A DNA stretch of 32,903 nt from a virus: the IMG/VR virus record IMGVR_UViG_3300019487_000071; one strand, given 5' to 3'. How positions within the stretch are numbered: position 1 is the stretch's first letter; each line of letters opens with the position of its first letter. Positions 12,957-24,910 of this stretch are shown in pieces. The notes beneath the pieces are model-generated. The model saw only the letters and a list, made by a program, of their open reading frames with translations. It was not told the origin of the DNA and searched no databases. The translations under genes were made by a program, and so were the position numbers.

Positions 12957-13002
12957 TGTTTGTTCATGGCCTCCATTATACAATGATTTGGAGGCTAAAC
13001 AT

Positions 13003-13077
13003 TGGCGGGAGTGCAAGGATTTGAACCCTGATCGTCTGGGTTGGAACCAGGCATGCTAGCCGTTGCACCACACTCCC
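13003..13077 (-). tRNA. tRNA-Trp(CCA)
   Basis: Cloverleaf; anticodon loop TTCCAAC; G73; encoded CCA. Confidence 0.9.
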
Positions 13078-13082
13078 ATTTT

Positions 13083-13157
13083 TGGAGCACTTGCTGGGAA
13101 TCGAACCCAGTCATTGAGTTTTGCAGACTCACCCTCATCCCAATCAGGCACAAGTGC
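13083..13157 (-). tRNA. tRNA-Cys(GCA)
   Basis: Loop CTGCAAA; U73; CCA. Confidence 0.92.
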
Positions 13158-13162
13158 AATTT

Positions 13163-13235
13163 TGGTGTCCAGCGTGGAGTCTAACCACCCAACCCTAAGA
13201 CGTCTCAAAGGGTCCATCACGCGAATGTGCCGGAC
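13163..13235 (-). ncRNA. tRNA-like RNA with Pyl-like body and 12-nt anticodon loop
   Basis: GTCCGGC/GCTGGAC acceptor stem + ACCA; 1-nt connector; CATT-CGCGT-GATG D arm; ACCCT/AGGGT stem with loop TTGAGACGTCTT; T loop TTAGACT. Confidence 0.65.
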
Positions 13236-13240
13236 ATATT

Positions 13241-13314
13241 TGGCGGTGCTAAGGAGAATCGAACTCCTGACTACCCGTAGACAGCGGGCGATCTTACCAC
13301 TAAACGATAGCACC
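13241..13314 (-). tRNA. tRNA-Asp(GTC)
   Basis: Loop CTGTCTA (U37); G73; CCA. Confidence 0.9.
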
Positions 13315-13321
13315 AAATTTT

Positions 13322-13397
13322 TGGGGTGTAATATCGGGTTCGATCCGATCCTTGCTGCTTCACAGGCAACCGTGCTAGCCACTACACTAAAAACACC
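13322..13397 (-). tRNA. tRNA-His(GTG)
   Basis: Loop CTGTGAA; G-1:C73; T loop ATCGAAC; two U-U mismatches in the acceptor stem. Confidence 0.85.
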
Positions 13398-13408
13398 ATC
13401 TTAAATTT

Positions 13409-13483
13409 TGGAGCCGATGCCCGGAATCGAACCGGATTTTCCGCCTTACAAGAGCGGCACATCACCTTTTATGCTTCATCGGC
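13409..13483 (-). tRNA. tRNA-Thr(TGT)
   Basis: Loop CTTGTAA; CCA. Confidence 0.9.
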
Positions 13484-13753
13484 ATCTTGCCATGTGGCCT
13501 TCTCAAGGAGAAAGTTCATATAGTCTCTGCAATACTGCAGCGAATCTTTTCTATCTCTACCCATGTAATGCCAGCTCAATGAGCTACCTAGGTAGGTATG
13601 CATATTTCCAACATACAAACAATCATCTAGCTTCATCAACGGAAGCCACGGAAGGTGCTCGTAGTTGGCTGCTGTGTTGAAGATATCCATGTCCATCTTC
13701 CTCTTGCACAGCATGCGTTTAAAGTCAACAATGTATCTATCGTCTTCAAACAT
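13469..13753 (-). CDS. Hypothetical protein; stop codon inside tRNA-Thr(TGT)
   Basis: 94-aa ORF filling the gap between two Thr tRNAs. Confidence 0.55.
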   Translation of the reverse strand: MFEDDRYIVDFKRMLCKRKMDMDIFNTAANYEHLPWLPLMKLDDCLYVGNMHTYLGSSLSWHYMGRDRKDSLQYCRDYMNFLLEKATWQDADEA

Positions 13754-13757
13754 AATC

Positions 13758-13832
13758 TGGAGCCAGTACTGAGAATCGAACTCAGGTCACAATCATACCA
13801 AGATCGTGTAATCGCCACTATACTATACCGGC
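13758..13832 (-). tRNA. tRNA-Thr(GGT)
   Basis: GCCGGTA/TACTGGC acceptor stem; loop TTGGTAT; CCA. Confidence 0.9.
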
Positions 13833-13833
13833 A

Positions 13834-14085
13834 TTATCGCTTTGCTCCTTGATCTACCCACTTTTTAATCACTCTGCGTTCATCAAAAGGCATCGAACTA
13901 GGTGGCATGCTTAGATTATCCCAAACACGACGCTTAATCACTAAGCGATTTGCATAAGCTACATCGTACTCCATCCAGTTCTTTGCTGGCCACTTTGCAT
14001 CGTGGCATTGAGCACATCGTTTTTCAAAGATGGGTCGAACATCTCTGTAAGAAACTGTTGCTATCATTAGCAAACTTATTAACAT
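13834..14085 (-). CDS. Small c-type cytochrome
   Basis: Hydrophobic N-terminus; VRPIFEKRCAQCH (CxxCH heme motif); MPP possible axial Met; C-terminal WVDQGA. Confidence 0.75.
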   Translation of the reverse strand: MLISLLMIATVSYRDVRPIFEKRCAQCHDAKWPAKNWMEYDVAYANRLVIKRRVWDNLSMPPSSMPFDERRVIKKWVDQGAKR

Positions 14086-14159
14086 TGGAGCCCCATAAGA
14101 GAATCGAACTCTTGATTACTGATTACGAATCAGTGGTTATACCACTTAACTAACAGGGC
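14086..14159 (-). tRNA. tRNA-Thr(CGT)
   Basis: Loop TTCGTAA; CCA. Confidence 0.92.
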
Positions 14160-14571
14160 ATTTCCACCAATTAAAGTCTTTGGCAGTTTTTCTTCTATGA
14201 CAATTAGCGCACAAAATATCGCATTTGTCCATTTCTTTTTGGAGCTTATCTAAGCTAAGTCCGTGACTAACAGCTTCACTTATGTTAAACTCTTTATCGC
14301 TTATATGATCAAAGTCTAAAACTATGGGATCTGCTTCGTTACAGGTCTTGCAAGGATTCTTGAGGAGGTGCTTTAGGACGTATTCTTGTGCGACCTTTCT
14401 TCTCTTTAAAATGTGCTCTTGCTTTCTAGCATTAAATGTAATTGGATCTTTATGTCTACGCTCTTTTTGATATAGCGATTTGCAAGGTTTGCAGCAGTTT
14501 TGAAATCCGGAACCTCTTTTATGATATTCACTAAGAATCTTATTTTGTCCACATTTATTACAAACCTTCAT
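14146..14571 (-). CDS. HNH endonuclease; stop codon inside tRNA-Thr(CGT)
   Basis: N-terminal CxxC motifs; LDFDHI...KCDILCANCH. Confidence 0.88.
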   Translation of the reverse strand: MKVCNKCGQNKILSEYHKRGSGFQNCCKPCKSLYQKERRHKDPITFNARKQEHILKRRKVAQEYVLKHLLKNPCKTCNEADPIVLDFDHISDKEFNISEAVSHGLSLDKLQKEMDKCDILCANCHRRKTAKDFNWWKCPVS

Positions 14572-14580
14572 ATAAGCCCT

Positions 14581-14898
14581 TTACTTTAAATTATCGAGCA
14601 GTACGTTTTGATTTTCGACGAAGAACTCTCTTGCTTCAGAGGGTGCTTCGCTGATCAACTGCTTAAGAAACGCTTGGGCCTGTAGCTTCACCTTGAACGA
14701 ACCCACTTTCTTAAAGTTCAGAAAAATTGAAATATCATCTGAAGATGTATTGCAAACCTTTTCGCCCTTAGTGAAACAAGCGTCGAATATTTTTAGCTGG
14801 CCATAGTCTTTAAAGTCTATAAAGCTAAAACTATTCTGGAAGTCGTTGATCACTCCCACTCGATACCGATTGTTGTTAATTGACCTCCGTATTGCCAA
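14581..14898 (-). CDS. Hypothetical protein
   Basis: 105-aa ORF with GGAGG RBS. Confidence 0.6.
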   Translation of the reverse strand: MAIRRSINNNRYRVGVINDFQNSFSFIDFKDYGQLKIFDACFTKGEKVCNTSSDDISIFLNFKKVGSFKVKLQAQAFLKQLISEAPSEAREFFVENQNVLLDNLK

Positions 14899-15202
14899 TT
14901 AAATTTGTTAAATATCTTTCAACTCTTTGACAGATAATGTCAGGATTGCCTTTGCGTAAACTATTCTTTTCCATTTCGTCTAAACCCTGATATTCACTCC
15001 AGTATGTGTCGACCGTGCTTAAAGCATAATCTCCGTCATCTTTAGGAGAATCTAACTTAAGGTTTTCCAGCGCACCTTTAGTATTGCCATTCATCGCTTC
15101 AACTGCTGCAATAACTCTTCTAACTTTGAGAAGTCCATCTGGAGTCATATAACCATGACGTGAGTAAACTTCTTCAACAGTTCTTTTTCCAAATTCATTC
15201 AT
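14876..15202 (-). CDS. Hypothetical protein
   Basis: 108-aa ORF with AAGGAG RBS. Confidence 0.65.
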   Translation of the reverse strand: MNEFGKRTVEEVYSRHGYMTPDGLLKVRRVIAAVEAMNGNTKGALENLKLDSPKDDGDYALSTVDTYWSEYQGLDEMEKNSLRKGNPDIICQRVERYLTNLIGNTEVN

Positions 15203-15219
15203 AAACTATCTCCTTAATA

Positions 15220-15295
15220 TGGTAGTCCCAGAAAGATTCGAACTTTCAATGACCGGTTCGTAGCCGATAGGTTTATCCAGTTAGCCTATGGGACC
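15220..15295 (-). tRNA. tRNA-Arg(ACG)
   Basis: Loop CTACGAA; CCA. Confidence 0.92.
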
Positions 15296-15312
15296 ATATT
15301 ACTTTAAAATTT

Positions 15313-15388
15313 TGGTCGCTGTAAAAGGACTCGAACCTTTATAACACGGCTTATGAGACCGGTACGTAACCTCTCCGTACATACAGCG
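15313..15388 (-). tRNA. tRNA(CAT): elongator Met or Ile2
   Basis: Loop CTCATAA; C1-G72 is paired and the three G-C anticodon-stem pairs are absent, so it is not an initiator tRNA. Confidence 0.85.
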
Positions 15389-15389
15389 A

Positions 15390-15464
15390 TGGTAGCCAGT
15401 GAGGGAGTCGAACCCACGTTTCCGCTTTGTAAGAGCGGCGTATTCCCGTTATACAGAACCGGCT
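15390..15464 (-). tRNA. tRNA-Val(TAC)
   Basis: Loop CTTACAA; CCA. Confidence 0.9.
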
Positions 15465-15473
15465 GCATATTTC

Positions 15474-15611
15474 GTTATGGCTAGGCTTTGTCGGGTTATT
15501 GTGCCTAACGTCCCGCCGCTATAGATACTGATCCACAGGTTCAAGCCTGGGTGTATCTCAGCAGAGCTGCACCGCGCGTCCCGCATGAGTTATACCTCAC
15601 ACGAGCATAAC
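15474..15611 (-). ncRNA. Candidate multi-hairpin ncRNA
   Basis: Ends pair (GTTATG/CATAAC); internal hairpins GTGTGAG/CTCATGC, GATAC..CCAGG/CCTG..GTATC and TAGGC/GCCTA; no ORF of 60 aa or more. Confidence 0.55.
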
Positions 15612-15616
15612 AAATT

Positions 15617-15693
15617 TGGTAGGAGTAACTGGATTTGAACCAATATCAACCGCCTATCAAGCGGCCGCACTAACCAGGTTGTGCTATACTCCC
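15617..15693 (-). tRNA. tRNA-Ile(GAT)
   Basis: Loop TTGATAG; CCA. Confidence 0.92.
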
Positions 15694-16205
15694 ATACTTT
15701 TAAAATTCAATCTTGCAAACACTCCGAATTCTTCTGTGGCTTTAGCATCGTATGCCTTAGCAGCATCTTCTTCGGATTCAAAGTAACCTATATGAATACT
15801 TTTACCATTAACTCTAATCGATGCTTCAAACTTGTTCCTGTCAAATCTCTTTCTAACTCCAGTATATTTGGAGGTTTTGCCAGTACTAGGTTTACCTCTA
15901 TTTCTACAATTTTCAGCGTGAGTGCAAACCCTTAAGTTTTCTCTAGTGTTGTTAAGCGGATCGCCATCGATATGGTCAACCTCATAACCGCTAGGTGGAT
16001 TCATAATAATGTTATGCATCCAAAACTTTTTAACTTTGCCATCTATAGACTTCTTAAAGCCTGCCTTAAAACCGTATAAGTGCTGATTGCCATTCGCGCT
16101 TGTTCCTGCAATTCTGTAAGCACTCCATTTGTACTTTGAGATTAAGTCAAAGTCTTCATCGCTTATCTTGGCAACCTGATTTTGAGTCAATTGTATAGTC
16201 TTCAT
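15684..16205 (-). CDS. HNH endonuclease with C-terminal AP2 domain; stop codon inside tRNA-Ile
   Basis: MHNIIM...VDHIDGDPLNNTRENLR; KYTGV...IHIGYF..EEDAAKAYD. Confidence 0.92.
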   Translation of the reverse strand: MKTIQLTQNQVAKISDEDFDLISKYKWSAYRIAGTSANGNQHLYGFKAGFKKSIDGKVKKFWMHNIIMNPPSGYEVDHIDGDPLNNTRENLRVCTHAENCRNRGKPSTGKTSKYTGVRKRFDRNKFEASIRVNGKSIHIGYFESEEDAAKAYDAKATEEFGVFARLNFKSMGV

Positions 16206-16220
16206 GTTTTACCTATAAAA

Positions 16221-16299
16221 TGGTCGGGCATAGTGGATTTGAACCACTGATCTCTAGTTCCCAAAACTAGCGCGATAAACCAGGCTTCGCTAATGCCCG
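16221..16299 (-). tRNA. tRNA-Pro(TGG) #1
   Basis: Loop TTTGGGA; C1-G72; CCA. Confidence 0.92.
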
Positions 16300-16306
16300 T
16301 AACTTT

Positions 16307-16525
16307 TGGTGTTCGCTGTAGGCCTCAAACCTACGACTCCAGCCTCAAATGCGATGTGCGGGTGGCTGGTGTTTTTTCGCGAGACGTTTCGTACTTGATT
16401 TCTATTGTTCATCAGGTCTTGTCCGGCGTTTAACCGGCTCGACGTTTCTATGAGCTTCCGCCCATCGCATTGTTACCTGACGATTTTTCAACCTTTCCTA
16501 CTAATCCTCTCTAAACTAAACGAAC
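16307..16525 (-). ncRNA. 219-nt tRNA-like (tmRNA-reminiscent) RNA
   Basis: Acceptor stem GTTCGTT/AGCGAAC + ACCA; T arm GTAGG-TTTGAGG-CCTAC; about 180-nt internal segment with long, crossing helices. Confidence 0.65.
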
Positions 16526-16537
16526 ACATACTAACTT

Positions 16538-16615
16538 TGGTCGAGTATCTAGGATTTGAACCTAGGATCTCCTGTATCCAAAACAGGCGGCCACTCCATA
16601 CTGGCCCAATACTCG
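16538..16615 (-). tRNA. tRNA-Pro(TGG) #2
   Basis: Loop TTTGGAT (A37 instead of G37); CCA. Confidence 0.88.
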
Positions 16616-16628
16616 ATACATAAACTTT

Positions 16629-16702
16629 TGGAGCACCTAGAGGGAGTCGAACCCTCGCCACCAGATTGGAAGTCTAGCGTGCTGCCGTAACACTTCAGGT
16701 GC
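16629..16702 (-). tRNA. tRNA-Gly(TCC)
   Basis: Loop CTTCCAA; U73; CCA. Confidence 0.92.
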
Positions 16703-16705
16703 ATA

Positions 16706-16755
16706 TTGAACTTGTCATACTATCGTTATTTGCGAACGGTTTCGCACAAGTTCAA
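16706..16755. other. Intergenic bulged hairpin
   Basis: Perfect 10-bp stem TTGAACTTGT/ACAAGTTCAA enclosing GCGAA/TTCGC. Confidence 0.6.
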
Positions 16756-16759
16756 ATTT

Positions 16760-16833
16760 TGGCAGGGAAACCTGGAATCGAACCAAGGTTGGCGGAGTCA
16801 AAGGCCGCTGTCTTACCACTAGACGATTTCCCT
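16760..16833 (-). tRNA. tRNA-Gln(TTG)
   Basis: Loop CTTTGAC; G73; CCA. Confidence 0.92.
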
Positions 16834-16844
16834 ACATTAAATTT

Positions 16845-16926
16845 TGGTGCCCAAGGCGAGATTCGAACTCGCATGCTTTCGCGCTGGTTTCTAAGACCAG
16901 TGTGTCTGCCATTCCACCACTCGGGC
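16845..16926 (-). tRNA. tRNA-Leu(TAG)
   Basis: Loop CTTAGAA; long variable arm; CCA. Confidence 0.92.
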
Positions 16927-16927
16927 A

Positions 16928-17001
16928 TGGCTGGGAAACCTGGAATCGAACCAAGGTTGACCGCTTCAGAGACGGCTGTCTTACCACTAGACGATTTCCC
17001 A
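16928..17001 (-). tRNA. tRNA-Gln(CTG)
   Basis: Loop CTCTGAA; body near-identical to Gln(TTG); CCA. Confidence 0.92.
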
Positions 17002-17006
17002 ATTTT

Positions 17007-17080
17007 TGGAGCGCGTAGCCAGAATCGAACTGGCGAATCCTCCATGGCAAGGAGACAGGTTACCACTACATCACACGCGC
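17007..17080 (-). tRNA. tRNA-Gly(GCC)
   Basis: Loop TTGCCAT; U73; CCA. Confidence 0.92.
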
Positions 17081-17088
17081 ACTCGCTC

Positions 17089-17421
17089 TTATTTTTCTAA
17101 AACATCCCTTTCAAATACTAGGTCAATCAACAGTTGTTCTGCTGTGCCATTAAATCCATAATACTTAAAATCTCTCATCTTCAAAGCTTCTAACGAAGTC
17201 TCTTCAGGTGACCATTGCTCTTCAAGTCCGTTGCACGAGCAATGCGATGCATTCACTTCGTACAGCTTTCCTTCCTTGTTGAACAAGATGAGTGCAGAAC
17301 CTTCGTAGCTTTCGCCCTCGTAGACGGCGAAGAGGATATCACAGCCATCAAGCTCTGAGACGTCAATCTCGAAAGCATTAGCAATTTCTTGCTTGTCCAT
17401 GTTATCGCTCTTCGTCCACAT
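17089..17421 (-). CDS. Hypothetical phage protein
   Basis: ILFAVYE...YEGSA...KLYEVNASHCSC.GLE.QW.PE; C-terminal FERDVLE motif. Confidence 0.75.
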   Translation of the reverse strand: MWTKSDNMDKQEIANAFEIDVSELDGCDILFAVYEGESYEGSALILFNKEGKLYEVNASHCSCNGLEEQWSPEETSLEALKMRDFKYYGFNGTAEQLLIDLVFERDVLEK

Positions 17422-17425
17422 ACAC

Positions 17426-17965
17426 CTATCCTGTTTCTAGCTCTGCTGTCCAGTAGACTAAGCTCCTGGTATCAACATAGCTCTTCCATTCTTCCGGAAC
17501 CTTCTTCATCCTAATCACTAGCTGAGCTGGTAGCCATGTGGGTTCCACTGGCCTCCTAAGCAACTTCATCTTCGCTTGCTCAGGAGTACGGTTAGCCTTG
17601 TAATGATTGCATGGGCGACATGCAGCCACGATGTTGGTCCAACTCGTAATACCACCTTGATCTCTAGGAAGAACGTGATCGAACGTTAAATCCTTGGTAG
17701 GCTTCCTCTCGTTACAGTATTGGCAAGTCCAACCATCTCTCAAGTAGATATTGATCCTGCTAAACTGCGCCTTACCCTTCCTCTTAAACTTCTTAAGTTG
17801 CCTAATAACGCTAGGCATCTTCCATTCTTGCGTCGCAGACCTGACAACATTATCGCCAGATTCTTCTACAACTTCAGCATCACCAGTGACTACAAGCTGC
17901 ATAGCTTTCATCCAGGTGATGATTTTTAACGGCTCATATGTGCTGTCAAGAAGTAACACTCTCAT
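17426..17965 (-). CDS. HNH endonuclease (McrA/HNH_5-like)
   Basis: VLLLDSTYEPL...RDGWTCQYC...LTFDHVLPR...SWTNIVAACRPCNHYK. Confidence 0.92.
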   Translation of the reverse strand: MRVLLLDSTYEPLKIITWMKAMQLVVTGDAEVVEESGDNVVRSATQEWKMPSVIRQLKKFKRKGKAQFSRINIYLRDGWTCQYCNERKPTKDLTFDHVLPRDQGGITSWTNIVAACRPCNHYKANRTPEQAKMKLLRRPVEPTWLPAQLVIRMKKVPEEWKSYVDTRSLVYWTAELETG

Positions 17966-17971
17966 GATATT

Positions 17972-18307
17972 TCATTCTCCATGTTTCTCATTCCAGTGCA
18001 GTTTTCTGTGACAGTTAGAGCAGAGGATATCACACTTTTTGAGTTCTCCTGATACTCTTTCTTTGCTCCACTTTCTATCTACCGCATCACTTATCTCAAT
18101 CTCTTTTTCTGTTGGATTTCTATGATGAAAATCCAGGCAACCTATATGATTCTCAGGACAACGAGCGCACTTAGCATTTGCTAATATTTCTTCTCGAAGC
18201 CATCGTCTCAATTCTGCTCTTTGTGCTTGTTGTTTTTCGTACATGTGCTTTTTATTGCGCTTGTACCAAGCCTTCTGAGCTTTCTTTTGTCTTTCTTTAT
18301 CCCTCAT
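17972..18307 (-). CDS. HNH endonuclease
   Basis: CARC...LDFHHRNP...KCDILCSNCHRKLH. Confidence 0.88.
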   Translation of the reverse strand: MRDKERQKKAQKAWYKRNKKHMYEKQQAQRAELRRWLREEILANAKCARCPENHIGCLDFHHRNPTEKEIEISDAVDRKWSKERVSGELKKCDILCSNCHRKLHWNEKHGE

Positions 18308-18308
18308 G

Positions 18309-18326
18309 ATATCTCCTAGGAGATAT
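18309..18326 (-). promoter_or_regulatory. Palindrome sequestering the RBS of the HNH gene
   Basis: Perfect palindrome ATATCTCCTAGGAGATAT contains GGAG and sits just 5' of the ATG at 18307. Confidence 0.55.
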
Positions 18327-18357
18327 TGTATCAGGTCAAAGTACTAGACCAAATCTT

Positions 18358-18433
18358 TGGTGCCTCCGTAGAGAATCGAGCCCTCTTCCACGGGTTAAAA
18401 GCCCGCTGCTCATCCATTAAAGCGTTCGGAGGC
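18358..18433 (-). tRNA. tRNA-Lys(TTT)
   Basis: Loop CTTTTAA; T loop CTCGATT; CCA. Confidence 0.88.
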
Positions 18434-18436
18434 ATA

Positions 18437-18510
18437 TGGTGGGTCTACGAAGAATCGAACTTCGGTCTACTGGTTAAGAGCCAGCAGCTTTACCACTAAG
18501 CTATAAACCC
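18437..18510 (-). tRNA. tRNA-Lys(CTT)
   Basis: Loop CTCTTAA; CCA. Confidence 0.93.
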
Positions 18511-18515
18511 GCTCC

Positions 18516-18662
18516 TTACCTTTTCATTATCAAGTCACATGCTTTGTTTACTGTTTCTCGTTTCGTTATTTTCAATTTTTCTAATGTTCTAAAGAGTTGC
18601 CAAGTTAGTCCCCATTTTTTTTTGGATCCCGACAGACAATCTTCCTTAGAAACTAATTTCAT
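18516..18662 (-). CDS. Small hypothetical ORF (48 aa)
   Basis: MKLVSKEDCL...; fills the gap between tRNA-Ala and tRNA-Lys. Confidence 0.3.
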   Translation of the reverse strand: MKLVSKEDCLSGSKKKWGLTWQLFRTLEKLKITKRETVNKACDLIMKR

Positions 18663-18668
18663 AATCTT

Positions 18669-18743
18669 TGGTGGACCGCTGGAGAATTGAACTCCACCAA
18701 CCGCAGTGCAAGTGCAGTTCGCCACCTTGGTACATGGCGGCCC
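18669..18743 (-). tRNA. tRNA-Ala(TGC)
   Basis: Loop CTTGCAC; G3.U70; A73; CCA. Confidence 0.9.
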
Positions 18744-18786
18744 ATATCTAACCTAATTGTAACTTAATTCCGTACTGTATTTGTTA

Positions 18787-18924
18787 TTACGCCCAGAGCG
18801 GATGGCGTTTCGTCTTAGGTTGTGGCATGACGCCATCAATACCTTGAACGCATGGGAGCACGGTGGCGCGAGTATCGCGCTGTGCTGCTTTTAGAATTGT
18901 AGTGTTGCGTCCAAACGAATTCAT
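18787..18924 (-). CDS. Leaderless small ORF (45 aa) overlapping strong hairpins
   Basis: CGTGG-TAGAAT + 6 nt + ATG; MNSFGRNTT...HPLWA. Confidence 0.35.
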   Translation of the reverse strand: MNSFGRNTTILKAAQRDTRATVLPCVQGIDGVMPQPKTKRHPLWA

Positions 18925-18946
18925 AATTTCATTCTACCACGAGTTT

Positions 18947-19144
18947 TTATTGACCTAGTAAAATTTTTTCAACTTGTTCTTTTAGCTCTTCAAAGCGCTT
19001 TTCTGCGATCTTTTCGGCGTGTTCCGGTGAACCGCAACTAGCGATTATTCTTCCAGTTCTCTTGTCTTGGACTATCCAATCCCTGTGGGGATTAGGCCCG
19101 CTATAGACCAAGAAGACTTGGTCCCACTTAGTTGGGAAGGACAT
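18947..19144 (-). CDS. Hypothetical protein (C-terminal VEKILLG motif)
   Basis: 65-aa ORF coupled to its neighbour. Confidence 0.65.
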   Translation of the reverse strand: MSFPTKWDQVFLVYSGPNPHRDWIVQDKRTGRIIASCGSPEHAEKIAEKRFEELKEQVEKILLGQ

Positions 19145-19364
19145 CTACTCGCCTCCACATGTCATACTGATCCTTGTTGATCTGCACAGAATGTGAAGCA
19201 TAATCTAGCAAATACCCACCAGAACCAAAATCCCTGCGCCAATACTTCACCTTAAGTTTTGTATACTCTGGTCCGATGTATTGAACCTTCTCGATGATGA
19301 GTTCAAGATCGTTTCCGCAAAGGTGGCGATACCTAGCGCCAGGAGTGAATCTGCTTCTGAACAT
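19128..19364 (-). CDS. Hypothetical protein
   Basis: 78-aa ORF; GAGG RBS. Confidence 0.6.
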   Translation of the reverse strand: MFRSRFTPGARYRHLCGNDLELIIEKVQYIGPEYTKLKVKYWRRDFGSGGYLLDYASHSVQINKDQYDMWRRVDVLPN

Positions 19365-19365
19365 G

Positions 19366-19770
19366 TTACCTCAACAATGATTTCTCGGTTGCTCTATTTA
19401 GCAATTCCGCTCTAAGGATTTCGATCAGCTGCGGTGAAAACTTTTCTTTGTAATCGTGCTTGCGGGATAGTTTCAGTAAAAATTTTAGATCAGATTCGCT
19501 GAATGTGATGGCTACTTGGCGATGATCTTCGTCTTCAAGTTCCTTACGAAGTGTCGTATAGCGTTCATCAGTCTTTCGCTCTTGATCTTGAAAGTAGAGA
19601 GCCGCAGGGATAAGCACAAGCATCGTGAACGGCCAGATGAGTAGTAGGATGGAACCTAACACAACATCATCTCTACCAATATCGACCTTCTCGCCTTTCT
19701 TCGTAGATGCAAGAAGTATGATAACTGCCCACAACATCACTGTCAATGAATATAGGAAAGCGATAATCAT
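19366..19770 (-). CDS. Two-TM membrane protein
   Basis: Two hydrophobic helices, including LLIWPFT; C-terminal TEKSLLR. Confidence 0.7.
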   Translation of the reverse strand: MIIAFLYSLTVMLWAVIILLASTKKGEKVDIGRDDVVLGSILLLIWPFTMLVLIPAALYFQDQERKTDERYTTLRKELEDEDHRQVAITFSESDLKFLLKLSRKHDYKEKFSPQLIEILRAELLNRATEKSLLR

Positions 19771-19792
19771 GGGTATGAGTAGTATCGGAAAA

Positions 19793-19868
19793 TGGTACCT
19801 CCAACGGGAGTCGAACCCGTATTCCTACCTTGAGAGGGTAGTGTCCTAGGCCATTAGACGATGGAGGC
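19793..19868 (-). tRNA. tRNA-Glu(CTC)
   Basis: Loop CTCTCAA; CCA. Confidence 0.9.
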
Positions 19869-19874
19869 ATAGTT

Positions 19875-19952
19875 TGGAAGCGCGGCCGGGTGTCGATCCC
19901 GGTTCTCCTGGTTGAAAGCCAAGTATCCTAGCCAAGCGTAGACGAACGCGCC
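19875..19952 (-). tRNA. tRNA-Glu(TTC)
   Basis: Loop CTTTCAA; T loop ATCGACA; CCA. Confidence 0.85.
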
Positions 19953-19991
19953 ATGCGATTTAAGGGAGATTTGGGTGTGCGAGGGGAGGGA

Positions 19992-20069
19992 TTAAGCGAA
20001 TAGACCGACGCACACCAAGCGTTCTTGCTCGGCTTCCATGAATTGGATTGTGAATTGTGCGTTGTTCAT
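19992..20069 (-). CDS. Leaderless small ORF (25 aa)
   Basis: CGTGG-TATAAT + 6 nt + ATG; MNNAQFTIQFMEAEQERLVCVGLFA. Confidence 0.35.
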   Translation of the reverse strand: MNNAQFTIQFMEAEQERLVCVGLFA

Positions 20070-20087
20070 ATTTTGATTATACCACGA

Positions 20088-20342
20088 TTACCAGTACCAG
20101 GTATCGAATAGTTCTTTTGCAGACTTAAGTCTTAATTTAGTAAGGAATTGAAGCAGTTGACCGATGCGGACTTCTCTCATAGTGGGTCCACGGTCGTGAT
20201 AGTCTTCAAACAGCCAGTCATCGTGACACATGAAGCAATAGTCTGCTTCCTCGTGATAGGTTCCAGCATAGCACTTCACGATAGGGGATTTGTCAGCTGC
20301 AGCCCTGTTGTACTTGTGGTTTCTCTTGCTGTTGAGACTCAT
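20088..20342 (-). CDS. Hypothetical protein
   Basis: 84-aa ORF with a C...CxxC motif. Confidence 0.55.
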   Translation of the reverse strand: MSLNSKRNHKYNRAAADKSPIVKCYAGTYHEEADYCFMCHDDWLFEDYHDRGPTMREVRIGQLLQFLTKLRLKSAKELFDTWYW

Positions 20343-20344
20343 TA

Positions 20345-21379
20345 TTAAATCTTACCATGCGCTCCATTCTCTTTAGTAGAGTTGGGCGTGATTAGGTTAA
20401 AAGCAGCTCTCATGCGGAACTCATCTAGGGAACGAGCACCGACATAAGTCATAGAGGAACGCAAGCCGCCTTCGATGTCTTGTAGGACATAAGCAACTGG
20501 TCCTTTGCAACGAACTAGGAAGGACTCACCTTCCGCAGTGCGCCATGAACTATCTTTGCCCTGAGCTTCGTAGCTCTCTTTAGAGGCTGACCCACGATAC
20601 TTCTTGAACCATACTCCTGCACCAGCATCCAATGTCTGGACCTTTTGTCCAGGGGTTTCGTCTGTGCCAGAGAGCATTCCGCCGACCATAACAAGCTTAG
20701 CTCCAGCTGCAAGTGCCTTAGCGATATCACCTGGAGTTTTGAGTCCTCCGTCCGCAATAACGTTTGCTCCGGTTGCAACGCAATCCATGATGGCCGATAG
20801 CTGAGGAACTCCAATACCCGTCTTGATGCGAGTGGTACATGCAGAGCCTGGACCAACGCCAACCTTGTAGTAGGCAACAATCGGTGCGCCAAGATGATAC
20901 TCAAAATCTTTGATCGATTGTCCAGTTGCAAAGTTCCCTGCAGTGATGTAAACCTTGTTGCTAAGGGCATCGTGAACAGCTTTCGCTTGCTCAACAACCG
21001 CAAGTTGAGCTCCATGTGCAACATCAATGACGATGTTAGTGGCTCCCACCGTTGCTAGTGCAACAGCTCGTTCCAACTCATATTCACCTAAGCCGATAGA
21101 AATAGCGGGACCATAGCCGTTTGGCCATAGGCAGGACTTATAAATCCTCACATTATCTTCGATAGACCCGAAGCGGTGTAGGCAGCCAATTCCGCCAGCG
21201 CTACCCATTGCATTCGCCATCTCGAAACCTGTGACGGTATCCATGTTGGCAGAGATGACAGGAAGTGAGAGTTTGGCATCACCGAAGTGAGTTGTCAAGT
21301 CTACTTCCTTACGGGACTTAATGCTAGAGAAACCTGGGGCGATCAGCACATCATCGAACGTGAACAGCTGCTTGTCCAT
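20345..21379 (-). CDS. guaC: GMP reductase (IMPDH/GMPR family, no CBS domains)
   Basis: [32 protein letters not shown] and KYRGSAS; GSAS fits GuaC better than the IMPDH GMGS. Confidence 0.85.
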
Positions 21380-21387
21380 TGTGGATC

Positions 21388-21876
21388 CTATTTGAGGAGG
21401 TCAGTGAGGTGGGACCACATAGCTTCATTCTCGCCAGTGGTGTATAGAGCTTCTTTAAAGCCTTGGAACTCTTTCTTGTACATGTTTAGGAAGTCTTGCT
21501 CGTGCTCAATAGAGGCTTCAACGTTCGCAATGCGGTCAGCGAGCTTGAGAACCACTGCGTCCTTAGACGCTTTGATTTTAACGTACGTCTTGACGTGGCG
21601 TTCCTTGCGATTCTTTCCCGGCTCATTTGTGACACGCCAAACAAGGTCTCGTACGCGAGCACCAAATAGTTCTTCAATTTCTTCGAGAGAGACATCGGTG
21701 TCTTCAACTGTATCGTGAAGCCAGGCGGCCATTTGGAGTTCTTCATCGTTTACTCCGAACCTAGCAAGGACGTTAACTACAGCATACAGGTGCTTGGTGT
21801 ACGGACCACCGTCGTACTCTTGCCCTAGGTGGGCATCAGCTGCGAACTCTCTTGCTTTAGATAGAGCATCAGACAT
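21388..21876 (-). CDS. HD-domain small alarmone hydrolase (RelA/SpoT hydrolase, Mesh1-like)
   Basis: AH.GQ...PYTKHL..V, LHDTVEDT and LKLADRIAN. Confidence 0.88.
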   Translation of the reverse strand: MSDALSKAREFAADAHLGQEYDGGPYTKHLYAVVNVLARFGVNDEELQMAAWLHDTVEDTDVSLEEIEELFGARVRDLVWRVTNEPGKNRKERHVKTYVKIKASKDAVVLKLADRIANVEASIEHEQDFLNMYKKEFQGFKEALYTTGENEAMWSHLTDLLK

Positions 21877-22259
21877 TATGCACCAACGTAGATAGGTTCA
21901 CCAGGTCCTACGAAACTGTAGAGACCGTCTTTTACTTTCTTAAATTCGGCGTCAGGTGCGCGATACACCATCGAGATGTCGCGGCGAACAAAGACTTCGT
22001 TCCTCTTCTTATCGAAGTAGAGGACATAGCCTAAAGCCTCGTTTCGTTCGACATAATAATCTAAGTCTTTATCGTTGCCGTAGCAGATGAAGATACGATC
22101 ATCACGAGAACGGTCACGCTTCTTGATTTCAGACTTTTTCTTTTCCATTGGCATGGGCATATTTGTATTATACGAATTGATTTTTGATGTGGCGGAGAGC
22201 ATCCTATTCGAAAGGAACGCAGAGTGAACATGCGCGATATGCTTAGCAGACATTCCCAT
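21876..22259 (-). CDS. Hypothetical protein
   Basis: ORF coupled to the hydrolase start; true start uncertain. Confidence 0.5.
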   Translation of the reverse strand: MGMSAKHIAHVHSAFLSNRMLSATSKINSYNTNMPMPMEKKKSEIKKRDRSRDDRIFICYGNDKDLDYYVERNEALGYVLYFDKKRNEVFVRRDISMVYRAPDAEFKKVKDGLYSFVGPGEPIYVGA

Positions 22260-22288
22260 AGACCTCTATAGCTTTACTCTCCAAATTT

Positions 22289-22359
22289 TGGTACTCTCGA
22301 CTGGAATCGAACCAGTTCAGCAGCTTTAGGAAAGCTGTGCCTCGTCCTAGAGCGAGAGC
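22289..22359 (-). tRNA. tRNA-Arg(CCT), shortened D arm
   Basis: Loop TTCCTAA; 71 nt; CCA. Confidence 0.8.
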
Positions 22360-22360
22360 A

Positions 22361-22431
22361 TGGTGCCCCTAGAAAGATTCGAACTTTCCTGACCGGATTA
22401 GAAGTCCAGCTGCCTATCCATTGGTAGGGGC
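22361..22431 (-). tRNA. tRNA-Arg(TCT), shortened D arm
   Basis: Loop CTTCTAA; 71 nt; CCA. Confidence 0.82.
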
Positions 22432-22857
22432 ATTGTATTCTTTGTACGCCTTCATCATGTATTTCCACTCATCCGGCGTAAAATTTTCGTTACGTGATAT
22501 GTTACATCTAGTACAACAAGGAACTACGTTCTTGGCAACATAATCATCGTTTGAATCTAGTCTATCTAGACCTGTTCCCATTTCTTTTTCAATGCTGGTT
22601 TGACAGTAGTGACAGTCTTGTGCAATAAGCTTCGAATAAGTCGCTAAATCTATTTCAAACTTTAATCCCCGCCCTTTTGCATTGCTAATTGCATTTTTGT
22701 GACGAGAGTTGGGTTTGAACTTGTTTTCTGCATACCATTTCTGTTTATTTTTATGCTTACATTCTTTGCACAAGCATTCGTGCCCGTCTTTGTAACGTTT
22801 ACTTTTGTTAAAATCTTTTTGCTCTTTATTTATTTTACATTTTGGACATGTTTTCAT
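22414..22857 (-). CDS. HNH-type endonuclease; stop codon inside tRNA-Arg(TCT)
   Basis: CxxC motifs; CHYC...GLDRLDS..DYVAKNVVPCCTRCN. Confidence 0.88.
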   Translation of the reverse strand: MKTCPKCKINKEQKDFNKSKRYKDGHECLCKECKHKNKQKWYAENKFKPNSRHKNAISNAKGRGLKFEIDLATYSKLIAQDCHYCQTSIEKEMGTGLDRLDSNDDYVAKNVVPCCTRCNISRNENFTPDEWKYMMKAYKEYNAPTNG

Positions 22858-22906
22858 GTCTCTATTGTATTATTAGGTTCGATTAAACATCGAACCACAT
22901 AAACTT

Positions 22907-22987
22907 GGTACCGGCCAAGGGACTCGAACCCTTACGCATTAGCGGCGCGTTTTAAGTGCGCTGTGTCTGCCATTCCACCACGCCGGC
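22907..22987 (-). tRNA. tRNA-Leu(TAA)
   Basis: Loop CTTAAAA; long variable arm; CCA. Confidence 0.9.
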
Positions 22988-22989
22988 AT

Positions 22990-23066
22990 TGGTAGCCCGA
23001 GTGGGAGTCGAACCCACAAAACTCAGTTTTTGAGACTGATACGTATGCCAGTTCCGTCATCGAGCC
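22990..23066 (-). tRNA. tRNA-Leu(CAA) with short variable loop
   Basis: Loop CTCAAAA; variable region only GTTTT; CCA. Confidence 0.85.
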
Positions 23067-23071
23067 ATATT

Positions 23072-23161
23072 TGGTGGGTTGTGAAGGAGTTGAACCATTC
23101 GTCTTCCCGCTCTACCGTTTAGAGACAACTGGGTTACAGCCAGCCGTAGAGAACACAACCC
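23072..23161 (-). tRNA. Atypical tRNA-Tyr(GTA)
   Basis: GGGTTGT/ACAACCC + ACCA; loop CTGTAAC; no canonical D arm; variable region about 28 nt. Confidence 0.7.
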
Positions 23162-23167
23162 AAACTA

Positions 23168-23521
23168 TTAAACTTCATCCATTCCGAGTTTGCGACTAAT
23201 CAAGTTGCCCTGATCACTTCGCTCCTCAATCTCAACATGTCCTAGACCTGCTTCAATCTTTAGCTTTAGCCAAGATTGGAATTCAGGCGTTGCGCACATT
23301 CTTTCGAAAGCAGTCTTGCGATTTTGACTTTGCTCTCTACTGTCGGTAGCCTTGCCTTCAGCACCACTAGATTCATGAACGCAGCGAACTCCGCTTGAGG
23401 TCTTCTGACGTTTCTGTCCGCCGTCTCCGCTACCTCTAAAAACGTCCCAGCGACAGTCAGCTGCCGTCACGCTGAACATCTTCGTTCGATTCTTTTTCCT
23501 TGCGCTCGACCCATTGTTCAT
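23168..23521 (-). CDS. Class I release-factor domain protein (ArfB/YaeJ-like peptidyl-tRNA hydrolase)
   Basis: FRGSGDGGQKRQKTSSGVRCVH...SREQSQNRKTAF: standalone GGQ domain with no codon-recognition domain. Confidence 0.88.
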   Translation of the reverse strand: MNNGSSARKKNRTKMFSVTAADCRWDVFRGSGDGGQKRQKTSSGVRCVHESSGAEGKATDSREQSQNRKTAFERMCATPEFQSWLKLKIEAGLGHVEIEERSDQGNLISRKLGMDEV

Positions 23522-23633
23522 AACTCACCCACTGGACATATCGGCTTTCACAAGAGCTGCATCCAGTTGGACCTACAGGTGCTTCAAATTCCACACCGCA
23601 TTTCTCGTTCATGCACTTGTACTTCTCATTCAT
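23457..23633 (-). CDS. Small Zn-ribbon-like protein
   Basis: CMNEKC...CSSC; overlaps the start of the RF-like gene by 65 nt. Confidence 0.4.
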   Translation of the reverse strand: MNEKYKCMNEKCGVEFEAPVGPTGCSSCESRYVQWVSYEQWVERKEKESNEDVQRDGS

Positions 23634-23638
23634 AAAAT

Positions 23639-23724
23639 TGGCGGAAGGTAGACGAATCGAACGCCCGACCTTTCGGTCGCCCTGGGGTTCAAGCCCAGTT
23701 GCCCACCATTGAGCGGTACCTTCC
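23639..23724 (-). tRNA. tRNA-Ser(TGA)
   Basis: Loop CTTGAAC; long variable arm; G73; CCA. Confidence 0.9.
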
Positions 23725-23731
23725 ATATTTG

Positions 23732-24042
23732 GTTAGAGACAGTCGATAAGCGGAATCCTGTCTAGGACTATCATTCGACTTGGACCGAACATTACTGTTG
23801 GCCTCTTTGCCTGGTACCCGATAGCACTCCGAGCAGGAGTATCACTATCCTATTTCCAGTTGCTGCACGAAGAGATTGCTCGTTTCACCCCAGTGTTTCG
23901 TAACCTACTCGACTGGACTCGTCTCTGTAGCTCTAATCGTCACCTCACGGTGCTGGGCCGTTAACCCATTCGTCGCTCTTGCAGTTCCGACTTTCCTCAC
24001 TCCTACTTGCGTAGGTCGCGCGATAGTCTGACCGTCTCTAAC
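23732..24042 (-). ncRNA. rnpB: RNase P RNA (compact)
   Basis: P1 TTAGAGACGGTC/GACTGTCTCTAA; P2 GACTATC/GATAGTC; CR-I GAGGAAAGTCGG; GCTACAGAGAC; GGTGAAAC; CR-V ACAGGATTCCGCTTAT. Confidence 0.92.
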
Positions 24043-24163
24043 AACTAACTTTTATAAGTCGATATAGTCGCGCGATAAGGGTTTTTGCTTCTTCAAGCTC
24101 TTCTCTTAGTTTAGCAATTTCTTGCTCCAACTCTCGCAACCTATTTTCTTCCTGTATCGTCAT
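24038..24163 (-). CDS. Small coiled-coil protein (41 aa)
   Basis: MTIQEENRLRELEQEIAKLREELEEAK...; its TAG overlaps the 5' strand of the RNase P P1 helix. Confidence 0.5.
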   Translation of the reverse strand: MTIQEENRLRELEQEIAKLREELEEAKTLIARLYRLIKVSC

Positions 24164-24169
24164 AAGCTT

Positions 24170-24246
24170 TGGCGCACCCTGTGGGACTCGAACCCACCAC
24201 AACTAGTTTAACAGACTAGTTTCTCCGCCCGGTAGAACTAAGGTGC
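24170..24246 (-). tRNA. tRNA-Asn(GTT) #1
   Basis: Loop CTGTTAA; G73; CCA. Confidence 0.88.
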
Positions 24247-24247
24247 A

Positions 24248-24278
24248 TGGTGCCGGCTAGTGGTTACGATCCACTGTC
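24248..24278 (-). pseudogene. Orphan tRNA 3' half (Phe-like)
   Basis: AGTGG-ATCGTAA-CCACT AGCCGGC ACCA with no matching 5' half directly upstream. Confidence 0.65.
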
Positions 24279-24371
24279 TTGTGTCCTTATTAAAGGCTTC
24301 GCTACAGTGACAATCTTGTATAACCTACCATCTGATGATCTTTTATACTTGCTCATAGTCTTCTTTCAGTT

Positions 24372-24447
24372 TGGTGCCGATTGTCAGTATCGATCTGACT
24401 CCTCTAGCTTTTCAGACTAGCGCTTCTACCTAGTTAGCTTAATCGGC
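24372..24447 (-). tRNA. tRNA-Phe(GAA)
   Basis: Loop CTGAAAA; T loop ATCGATA; CCA. Confidence 0.9.
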
Positions 24448-24759
24448 ATTTTGTAATTTTTCATGCTCTTCTGCGTGACAATTTGCACACAATAGAACAC
24501 ATTTCTTTAACTCTTCTTGAACTTTTTCCCAAGAAGGATTGCTTGCCTTTGAGATCTGAAAGTCCTTCTTTGTGGGATCTAAGTGATGAAACGATAAAGC
24601 TCGTTTACACCTTGAATATCCACAGTTTTGGCACTTACCTCCCATGAACGCTAGTGCCTTTTCCTTTATATTGCGTCTTGCGGTTCTAACCCTACATTTT
24701 GCGCAAATATTACGTTCTTTGTCTTTATGCTCTTTTCCACATGTAGTGCATAACTTCAT
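24439..24759 (-). CDS. HNH endonuclease; stop codon inside tRNA-Phe
   Basis: CQNC...LSFHHLDP...KCVLLCANCHAEEH. The ATG at 24759 follows the 3' end (GGAG) of tRNA-Asn #2. Confidence 0.88.
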   Translation of the reverse strand: MKLCTTCGKEHKDKERNICAKCRVRTARRNIKEKALAFMGGKCQNCGYSRCKRALSFHHLDPTKKDFQISKASNPSWEKVQEELKKCVLLCANCHAEEHEKLQNAD

Positions 24760-24763
24760 AACT

Positions 24764-24837
24764 TGGCTCCAGGGCAGGGACTCGAACCCCGATATCAGCA
24801 TTAACAGTGCAGCGTCCTACCATTAAACGACCCCGGA
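24764..24837 (-). tRNA. tRNA-Asn(GTT) #2
   Basis: Loop CTGTTAA; TCC/GGA acceptor; G73; CCA. Confidence 0.9.
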
Positions 24838-24846
24838 ATATAAACT

Positions 24847-24879
24847 TGGCGGGGCATCGCGCGAAAGCGCGATAACCCC
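24847..24879 (-). ncRNA. CCA-ended minihelix
   Basis: GGGGTTATCGCGC-TTTC-GCGCGATGCCCC-G-CCA. Confidence 0.6.
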
Positions 24880-24888
24880 ATTTTAATT

Positions 24889-24910
24889 TGGTGGGGCGCT
24901 GCAGCGCCCC
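24889..24910 (-). ncRNA. CCA-ended 7-bp microhelix
   Basis: GGGGCGC-TGCA-GCGCCCC-A-CCA. Confidence 0.6.

Follow-up and report, generated by a model that had tools for sequence, protein, structure and literature searches.

Why should protein-coding genes borrow their stop codons from the transfer RNA (tRNA) genes that follow them? The question is raised by a stretch of 32,903 nucleotides (nt) from the IMG/VR virus record IMGVR_UViG_3300019487_000071, here called the window, which we take to come from an uncultured large phage and for whose sequence a protein index lists a 178-kb contig. The minus strand of the window carries a dense tRNA array, at approximately 13,000-24,900, in which five open reading frames (ORFs) end inside the 5' part of the next tRNA. 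The original prediction for this locus held that cleavage at tRNA position +1 by ribonuclease P (RNase P) removes each of these stop codons and thereby silences potentially toxic nucleases, in a circuit with ribosome-rescue factors encoded in the same island. Our analysis indicates that the feature is real, but largely ordinary: it is a dense further example of a known arrangement, for which a regulatory hypothesis has already been published. The overlapping ORFs are probably mobile insertions in the short spacers of the tRNA array of a large phage, and the overlaps a tolerated, possibly exploited, by-product. Judging from their sequences, four of the inserts would be free-standing homing endonuclease genes of the HNH/His-Me type, drawn from three families, and the fifth an ORFan.

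Direct reading of the minus strand, on which all the features of these junctions lie, bore out the five overlaps. ORF 13469-13753, encoding a 94-residue ORFan, takes as its stop the TAA at nt 13-15 of tRNA-Thr(TGT) (13409-13483; 54.5 bits), and ORF 14146-14571, an HNH gene of phrog_2255, uses the D-arm TAA at nt 12-14 of tRNA-Thr(CGT) (14086-14159; 61.6 bits). The stop of ORF 15684-16205, an HNH_3 plus AP2 gene of phrog_99, is the TAG formed by U8-A9-G10, that is nt 8-10, of tRNA-Ile(GAT) (15617-15693; 61.5 bits). ORF 22414-22857, an EndoVII/HNH (His-Me finger) gene of phrog_1035, terminates at the TAG occupying nt 16-18 of tRNA-Arg(TCT) (about 22362-22431; 35 bits), a tRNA with a reduced D arm that was detected solely by Rfam and by relaxed ARAGORN. 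Finally, ORF 24439-24759, the second HNH gene of phrog_2255, ends with the TAA at nt 7-9 of tRNA-Phe(GAA) (24372-24447; 54.7 bits). In all five cases the stop therefore lies at tRNA nt 7-18, downstream of the 5' maturation site.

That four of the five ORFs encode HNH nucleases was likewise confirmed by comparisons with PHROG, with ORFs 14146 and 24439 matching phrog_2255 (2e-33 and 1e-29), ORF 15684 matching phrog_99 (1e-40) as well as the Pfam family HNH_3, and ORF 22414 matching the EndoVII/HNH family phrog_1035 (8e-21). The HNH/His-Me domain is thus present in four of the five, in three families, and absent from ORF 13469. The CxxC...CANCH signature is conserved in an alignment. All these ORFs sit between same-strand tRNA genes, outside introns, and an Rfam scan of the window turned up no family of group I introns. 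ORF 13469 has no family match and no homologue but itself among 5.8 billion proteins, and we treat it as a putative, unproven coding sequence. The Logan contigs retrieved with it (up to 124 kb, from two other runs) are 99.99-100% identical and represent the same phage, and add no polymorphism. The fit of the inserts into their gaps is tight: ORF 13469 fills the space between tRNA-Thr(GGT) and tRNA-Thr(TGT), starting 4 nt past the CCA of the former and ending 15 nt into the latter, and HNH 24439 starts 4 nt past tRNA-Asn and ends 9 nt into tRNA-Phe. The longest ORF at the latter site begins at 24801, within tRNA-Asn, but the PHROG match and the sequence favour the ATG at 24759, in agreement with the original prediction.

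The case for insertion is carried by a comparison with a related phage. A megablast search of the island against 50,697 phage records gave no match, and two exact-pattern scans of IMG/VR with motifs from the second tRNA-Asn (tRNA-Asn2) recovered a single other contig, IMGVR_UViG_3300049215_000227 (L004; 176.5 kb), whose ArfB is 86% identical to that of the window over the matched residues. A metagenome scan with ArfB yielded 18 loci that were short or distant (at most 58% identity), mostly without tRNAs, and hence uninformative on the junctions. In L004 the tRNA/RNase P island is present in the same order as in the window. The spacer between its tRNA-Asn and tRNA-Phe is 20 nt long and HNH 24439 is absent; its Thr(CGT)-Thr(GGT)-Thr(TGT) run has spacers of 1 and 10 nt, the site of ORF 13469 being empty; and its Pro-Ile spacer is 131 nt long and lacks an HNH gene, where the window has HNH 15684. 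At four of the five sites, then, the tRNAs lie close together in L004 (spacers of 1, 10, 20 and 131 nt), and at the remaining site the tRNA is adjoined by a homologous ORF that is not an HNH gene. The phrog_2255 homologue of HNH 14146 in L004 lies elsewhere, between tRNA-Leu(CAA) and tRNA-Arg(TCT), where it ends at a stop of its own, ahead of a further ORF. Since the corresponding tRNAs of L004 are near together, or separated by an HNH-free spacer, the overlapping ORFs of the window are best read as insertions. Presence/absence polymorphism together with relocation is what free-standing homing endonuclease genes typically show. The overlapped tRNAs also have a lower mean identity to their L004 counterparts than the other tRNAs (0.67 and 0.76; one-sided Mann-Whitney p = 0.037), which would fit, weakly, with co-conversion of flanking DNA during homing.

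Several further observations concern the same pair of phages. A non-HNH ORF of L004 (18586-18753, plus strand) is the homologue of window ORF 14581-14898, and its TAG occupies nt 3-5 of tRNA-Thr(CGT). Its counterpart in the window, ORF 14581, has its own stop and is parted from tRNA-Thr(CGT) by the inserted HNH 14146. The window tRNA-Thr(CGT) is 80% identical to the Thr(TGT) of L004 and 73% to its Thr(CGT), a sign that anticodons may have been switched, or the Thr tRNAs reshuffled. Window tRNA-Glu(TTC) (19875-19952, minus strand) is 100% identical to its L004 counterpart (13001-13078), other tRNAs being 60-91% identical, and this suggests that it was exchanged recently or is under strong constraint. 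The 131-nt Pro-Ile spacer of L004 (17909-18039) holds a T-arm-like GTGGGTTCGAATCCCAT motif, and may contain a tRNA remnant or tRNA-like element.

As for the stops, the comparison shows them to be part of the tRNAs. The triplets used are U8-A9-G10 (TAG) and TAA or TAG of the D-arm or D-loop, and because the segments GGATAGG of tRNA-Arg(TCT) and GTTAAG of a Thr tRNA recur in L004 tRNAs free of any overlapping ORF, these stops are intrinsic to the tRNA. The tails that they add are 2-5 non-conserved residues past the conserved CANCH...WW(K/R) end of the protein; the tail of the L004 homologue is of similar size and unrelated in sequence. The acceptor stems of the overlapped tRNAs are paired at seven of seven positions in all five (G-U pairs occurring in Thr(CGT)). 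Across the 30 window tRNAs read in three frames, 34% of frames reach a stop within 20 nt and 37% reach none inside the tRNA.

The loss of the stop that we infer rests on the role of RNase P in generating the 5' ends of tRNAs in bacteria. Each insert ends at or next to tRNA +1, its frame running 2-5 codons into the tRNA up to the TAA or TAG already existing there. Any transcript that reaches the nuclease stop would also include the 5' part of the tRNA; with zero spacing, cotranscription is therefore unavoidable for full-length ORF transcripts. Either a ribosome would reach the stop, its footprint unfolding the acceptor and D stems, or the tRNA would fold and RNase P would cut at +1, and the geometry implies that termination of the nuclease and 5' maturation of the tRNA should be mutually exclusive on any one transcript. 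The cut would leave a nuclease messenger RNA (mRNA) devoid of a stop and with a 3' end unprotected by structure, presumably a substrate for 3' exonucleases and ribosome rescue, with low nuclease output as the expected consequence. This part of the original prediction, the removal of the stop by cleavage at +1, does follow from the geometry, and with 60 nt of the upstream ORF attached four of the five precursors are predicted to fold as a cloverleaf from the exact +1; the idea itself is not new, having been published earlier (PMC2330249). Scans of the window for sigma-70 promoters and intrinsic terminators gave signals not above shuffles.

The 5' ends of some of these genes show a comparable closeness to tRNAs. 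ORFs 13834-14085, 13469-13753 and 24439-24759, all on the minus strand, begin 0, 4 and 4 nt past the CCA of the preceding tRNA, and any Shine-Dalgarno sequence that they possess would fall within that tRNA (for 24439, a GGAG is found in the acceptor strand of tRNA-Asn). In these three cases tRNA 3' processing would strip the upstream ribosome-binding site and produce leaderless mRNAs.

Is the arrangement special to this island? Other phages indicate otherwise. In the annotation of phage T5, hegD ends 23 nt into tRNA-Gln2 and hegC 14 nt into tRNA-Ser2, and most neighbouring non-HNH ORFs in the T5 array stop 0-20 nt before a tRNA. We also used tblastn to sample, in cultured phages, homologues of HNH 14146 whose context was not known beforehand (n=17). 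All 17 lie within or at the edge of tRNA arrays, in a range spanning actinophages, crAss001, FelixO1, a Vequintavirinae phage, a Pakpunavirus, an Enterococcus Schiekvirus and cyanophage S-CAM3. The overlap with the tRNA is 10 nt for gp109 of Streptomyces phage JimJam, gp102 of mycobacteriophage PegLeg, the endonuclease of cyanophage S-CAM3 and the HNH protein of Erwinia phage pEp_SNUABM_01, 14 nt for gp8 of crAss001, and 85 and 72 nt for gp160 and gp178 of Mycobacterium phage Dandelion. Other homologues have their own stop, with a gap to the tRNA of 1 nt in Mildred21 and FelixO1 and of 64-346 nt in MS810, Lewan, JonJames and PaZq-1. In the four cases checked (Mildred21, PegLeg, Dandelion gp160 and JimJam) the conserved WW(K/R)-type end of the protein lies 0-4 codons before tRNA +1. 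These homologues, of the phrog_2255 type where tested, look like a homing endonuclease family specific to tRNA arrays.

As annotated, the first of the two Dandelion genes (locus L025, 6001-6510 and 9738-10229) reads through all of tRNA-Trp into tRNA-Tyr and the second through 72 nt of tRNA-Thr, and they gain 23-28 tRNA-encoded residues.

A hand count of same-strand gene/tRNA junctions within 150 nt, on a small and phylogenetically non-independent sample, showed that 13 of 18 HNH genes overlap the tRNA and that 5 of 38 other genes do so (Fisher p = 2e-5), a large effect. With the window left out, the figures become 9 of 14 and 4 of 32 (p = 8e-4). Both this enrichment and the share of tRNA frames with an early stop place the overlaps above chance expectation. 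HNH genes of phage tRNA arrays characteristically and repeatedly run into the next tRNA, across phyla and HNH subfamilies.

Some of the data weigh against regarding the overlaps as a by-product of the insertion of HNH genes. Besides the limited nature of the hand-counted sample, about a third of the sampled tRNA-adjacent HNH genes do not overlap (gaps of 1-346 nt); since these genes stop before the tRNA, overlap is not obligatory. Non-HNH genes can also overlap, as do ORF 13469, T5.069, PegLeg gp107 and the L004 homologue of ORF 14581 (by 5 nt). Lastly, with random frames in these five tRNAs, every one of the five stops would lie within 18 nt of +1 with a probability of about 0.03, a hint of some selection for which a pure by-product model has no need.

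Another reading is that the arrangement is a selected attenuator, as in the T4 segB and T5 model taken as adaptive, in which selection acting on the homing endonuclease or on its phage would maintain the overlap, coupling to tRNA processing keeping nuclease levels safely low with no link to rescue factors. We regard this as possible, if rather doubtful. It would account for the HNH-specific enrichment of overlaps and for the clustering of the stops at nt 8-24 in 11 of the 13 overlapping HNH genes; several starts lie 0-17 nt past the upstream tRNA, so that both mRNA ends need an unprocessed precursor, and the proposal is a published one (PMC2330249). Against it stand the many homologues that end at a stop of their own 1-346 nt ahead of the tRNA, and the two Dandelion genes that read 72-85 nt through tRNA sequence. 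A more elaborate version appears to us somewhat less likely still: a selected and widely conserved attenuator in which RNase P would make the nuclease mRNAs non-stop, 3' processing would strip the ribosome-binding site from tRNA-adjacent starts, nuclease would be made only from nascent unprocessed precursor, and the phage RNase P RNA and ArfB would tune the balance.

The dedicated non-stop circuit of the original prediction goes further, in that the stops would have been selected into the tRNAs, RNase P would silence toxic nucleases, and the ArfB, PTH2 and tmRNA-like RNA of the island would handle the resulting stalls (tmRNA, transfer-messenger RNA). Most of its proposed parts exist. A phage-encoded bacterial type A RNase P RNA is found at 23731-24039 on the minus strand (Rfam, 184 bits), and its orthologue in L004 (8913-9216, plus strand; 153 bits) is about 73% identical; this level of identity between two ~177-kb phages implies that the RNA is conserved and not recently captured. 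In a quick literature search, RNase P RNA went unmentioned in papers on huge phages. An ArfB-like RF-1-domain protein with the GGQ motif is encoded at 23168-23521 (minus strand), with its own stop, no tRNA overlap and 6 nt to the next tRNA-like gene, and a PTH2 gene is also present in the island. The "tmRNA-reminiscent" RNA of 219 nt fared less well, matching no Rfam family even at E <= 1, and the Rfam scan of the window found no tmRNA at gathering score. A "permuted tmRNA" called by relaxed ARAGORN at 18669-19011 coincides in part with tRNA-Ala, is not backed by Rfam and was treated as false. A sixth overlap that had been proposed is marginal. Here a 41-residue, coiled-coil-like mini-ORF (24038-24163, minus strand; ATG about 24163, TAG 24040-24038) ends in the P1 strand of the RNase P RNA: the overlap exists, but it covers only 2 nt of the RNA model (P1 5' strand, from position 1). 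In L004 the mini-ORF is absent, and tRNA-Asn2 is separated from the RNase P RNA by 3 nt.

The co-occurrence of RNase P RNA, RF-1-domain protein and PTH2 with the overlaps, the early position of all five stops, and the peptidyl-tRNA hydrolase that mycobacteriophage Dandelion carries in its tRNA array, beside its tRNA-overlapping HNH genes, could all be taken to favour such a circuit. We nonetheless consider it improbable. L004 keeps the RNase P RNA and ArfB yet lacks the HNH insertions of the window, and because it has both without the insertions, the two are independent of the overlaps; conversely T5, crAss001, S-CAM3 and others have overlaps but no such factors in the regions examined. Release by an ArfB-type factor would yield an untagged nuclease short of just 2-5 non-conserved residues, which runs counter to silencing. 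The tmRNA-like component has no support from Rfam, and overlap is facultative among the homologues. Translation genes are common in tRNA-rich phages, and their co-location with HNH overlaps is no evidence of a functional link.

Could the overlaps be due to nothing but compaction and chance? With leaders of 1-17 nt, any ORF next to a tRNA might overrun into it, with nothing specific to nucleases. The native tRNA-tRNA spacers of the window are indeed as short as this (1-17 nt), and the non-HNH overlaps listed above, together with T5.057, are of the expected kind. However, the disparity between HNH and other genes in the hand count, and the fact that most non-HNH genes in the same arrays stop 0-20 nt before the tRNA, render this very improbable as a full account. 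Slightly less probable again is the view that the insertions damaged the overlapped tRNAs and left decaying or non-functional copies, which would stay unprocessed and thus generate no non-stop mRNA. In keeping with decay, the score of tRNA-Arg(TCT) is just 35 bits and its D arm is reduced, position 8 is A and not U in Phe and Thr(TGT), the T5 tRNA-Gln2 downstream of hegD is flagged as a pseudogene, and ARAGORN makes no call for the overlapped tRNA-Lys of the Erwinia phage. Against it, four of the five window tRNAs score 54-62 bits, with full acceptor pairing and an encoded CCA; A8 is also seen in the non-overlapped and well-conserved tRNA-Asn2 of both phages; and the reduced-D-arm Arg(TCT) is conserved in L004 without an overlap. 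Completion of stops by polyadenylation in the mitochondrial style was rejected, as only one of the five junctions, that of ORF 14146, would give UAA on addition of A.

Beyond the junctions, the array contains 26 tRNAs by default ARAGORN, and approximately 32 when relaxed ARAGORN and Rfam are included. The genes and tRNA-like genes missed by default ARAGORN, all on the minus strand, comprise a Ser(TGA) tRNA (23639-23724), a 90-nt tRNA-like gene after the ArfB-like gene (23072-23161), an Arg(CCT)-like gene with a reduced D arm (22289-22363), tRNA-Lys(TTT) (18358-18433) and the tRNA-Glu(TTC) discussed above. Other genes near the array encode a peptide deformylase, a GMP reductase/IMPDH-family protein and an HD-domain protein.

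As for what the arrangement might mean, tRNA 5' maturation would, if the proposed stop loss is true, be a general built-in brake on selfish nucleases colonising phage tRNA arrays, and a natural source of non-stop mRNAs during infection. Both the arrangement and the idea have precedents, in the annotation of T5 and in the 2008 paper on T4 segB, and the window is of value chiefly as a further, very dense example: it packs five junctions into 12 kb, next to an RNase P RNA of the phage. The most useful product is the tally across phages, with its HNH-specific enrichment and its constant association of phrog_2255-type genes with tRNA arrays, which opens an old hypothesis to straightforward testing in T5 and E. 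coli. On the overlap itself we found nothing in the literature testing or generalising the stop-loss idea: a search for phage stop codons overlapping tRNAs returned nothing, and one on non-stop mRNAs and RNase P in phages brought up just a general review of RNase R.

Among known systems, one parallel is the tRNA punctuation of mitochondria, where RNase P and 3' processing set the ends of mRNAs and incomplete stops are completed by polyadenylation. There too ORFs are flanked directly by tRNAs, and here some starts lie 0-4 nt past a tRNA, but in the window the stops are complete and lie inside the tRNA, so that punctuation in the mitochondrial sense is not what is seen. In E. coli, RNase III cleaves a hairpin inside the arfA mRNA. 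The resemblance, on which the original prediction had drawn, is that an endonucleolytic cut removes the stop, so that output depends on ribosome-rescue status. Yet the RNase and the RNA element are different ones, and the product of arfA is itself a rescue factor that is active when truncated; the ORFs regulated here would be nucleases and the ArfB-like gene has its own stop, and nothing here points to a feedback of the arfA kind.

Likenesses are also offered by phages. The phrog_2255-type HNH genes of actinophages, crAss001, FelixO1-like phages, Vequintavirinae and S-CAM3 are homologous to ORFs 14146 and 24439 and reside in tRNA arrays, and about half of them end 10-85 nt into the next tRNA; they differ in being only 30-41% identical, in having other flanking tRNAs, and in that several keep their own stop. 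HNH genes inside tRNA clusters have also been noted for mycobacteria (PMC6582537). The hegC and hegD genes of T5, a known coliphage, are, like those of the window, free-standing HNH genes between same-strand tRNAs that end inside the next tRNA (by 14 and 23 nt), but they belong to the phrog_59 subfamily as opposed to phrog_2255, phrog_99 and phrog_1035, and the region of T5 examined lacks RNase P RNA and ArfB. The conceptual precedent is T4 SegB, encoded in a tRNA cluster and shown to be a homing endonuclease (Brok-Volchanskaya et al. 2008, PMC2330249). In the Discussion of that paper it was proposed that a cut between the last sense codon and the stop, during maturation of tRNA-Arg, lowers segB expression, and the same stop-loss proposal is cited there for T5 HNH endonucleases in the tRNA cluster, under enzyme names that are not equated with hegC and hegD. 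Like the HNH genes of the window, segB is a homing endonuclease gene in a tRNA cluster, cotranscribed with the tRNAs, whose ORF would be separated from its stop by tRNA maturation; unlike them, it encodes a protein of the GIY-YIG fold, and its RefSeq stop lies 5 nt upstream of the tRNA and not inside it.

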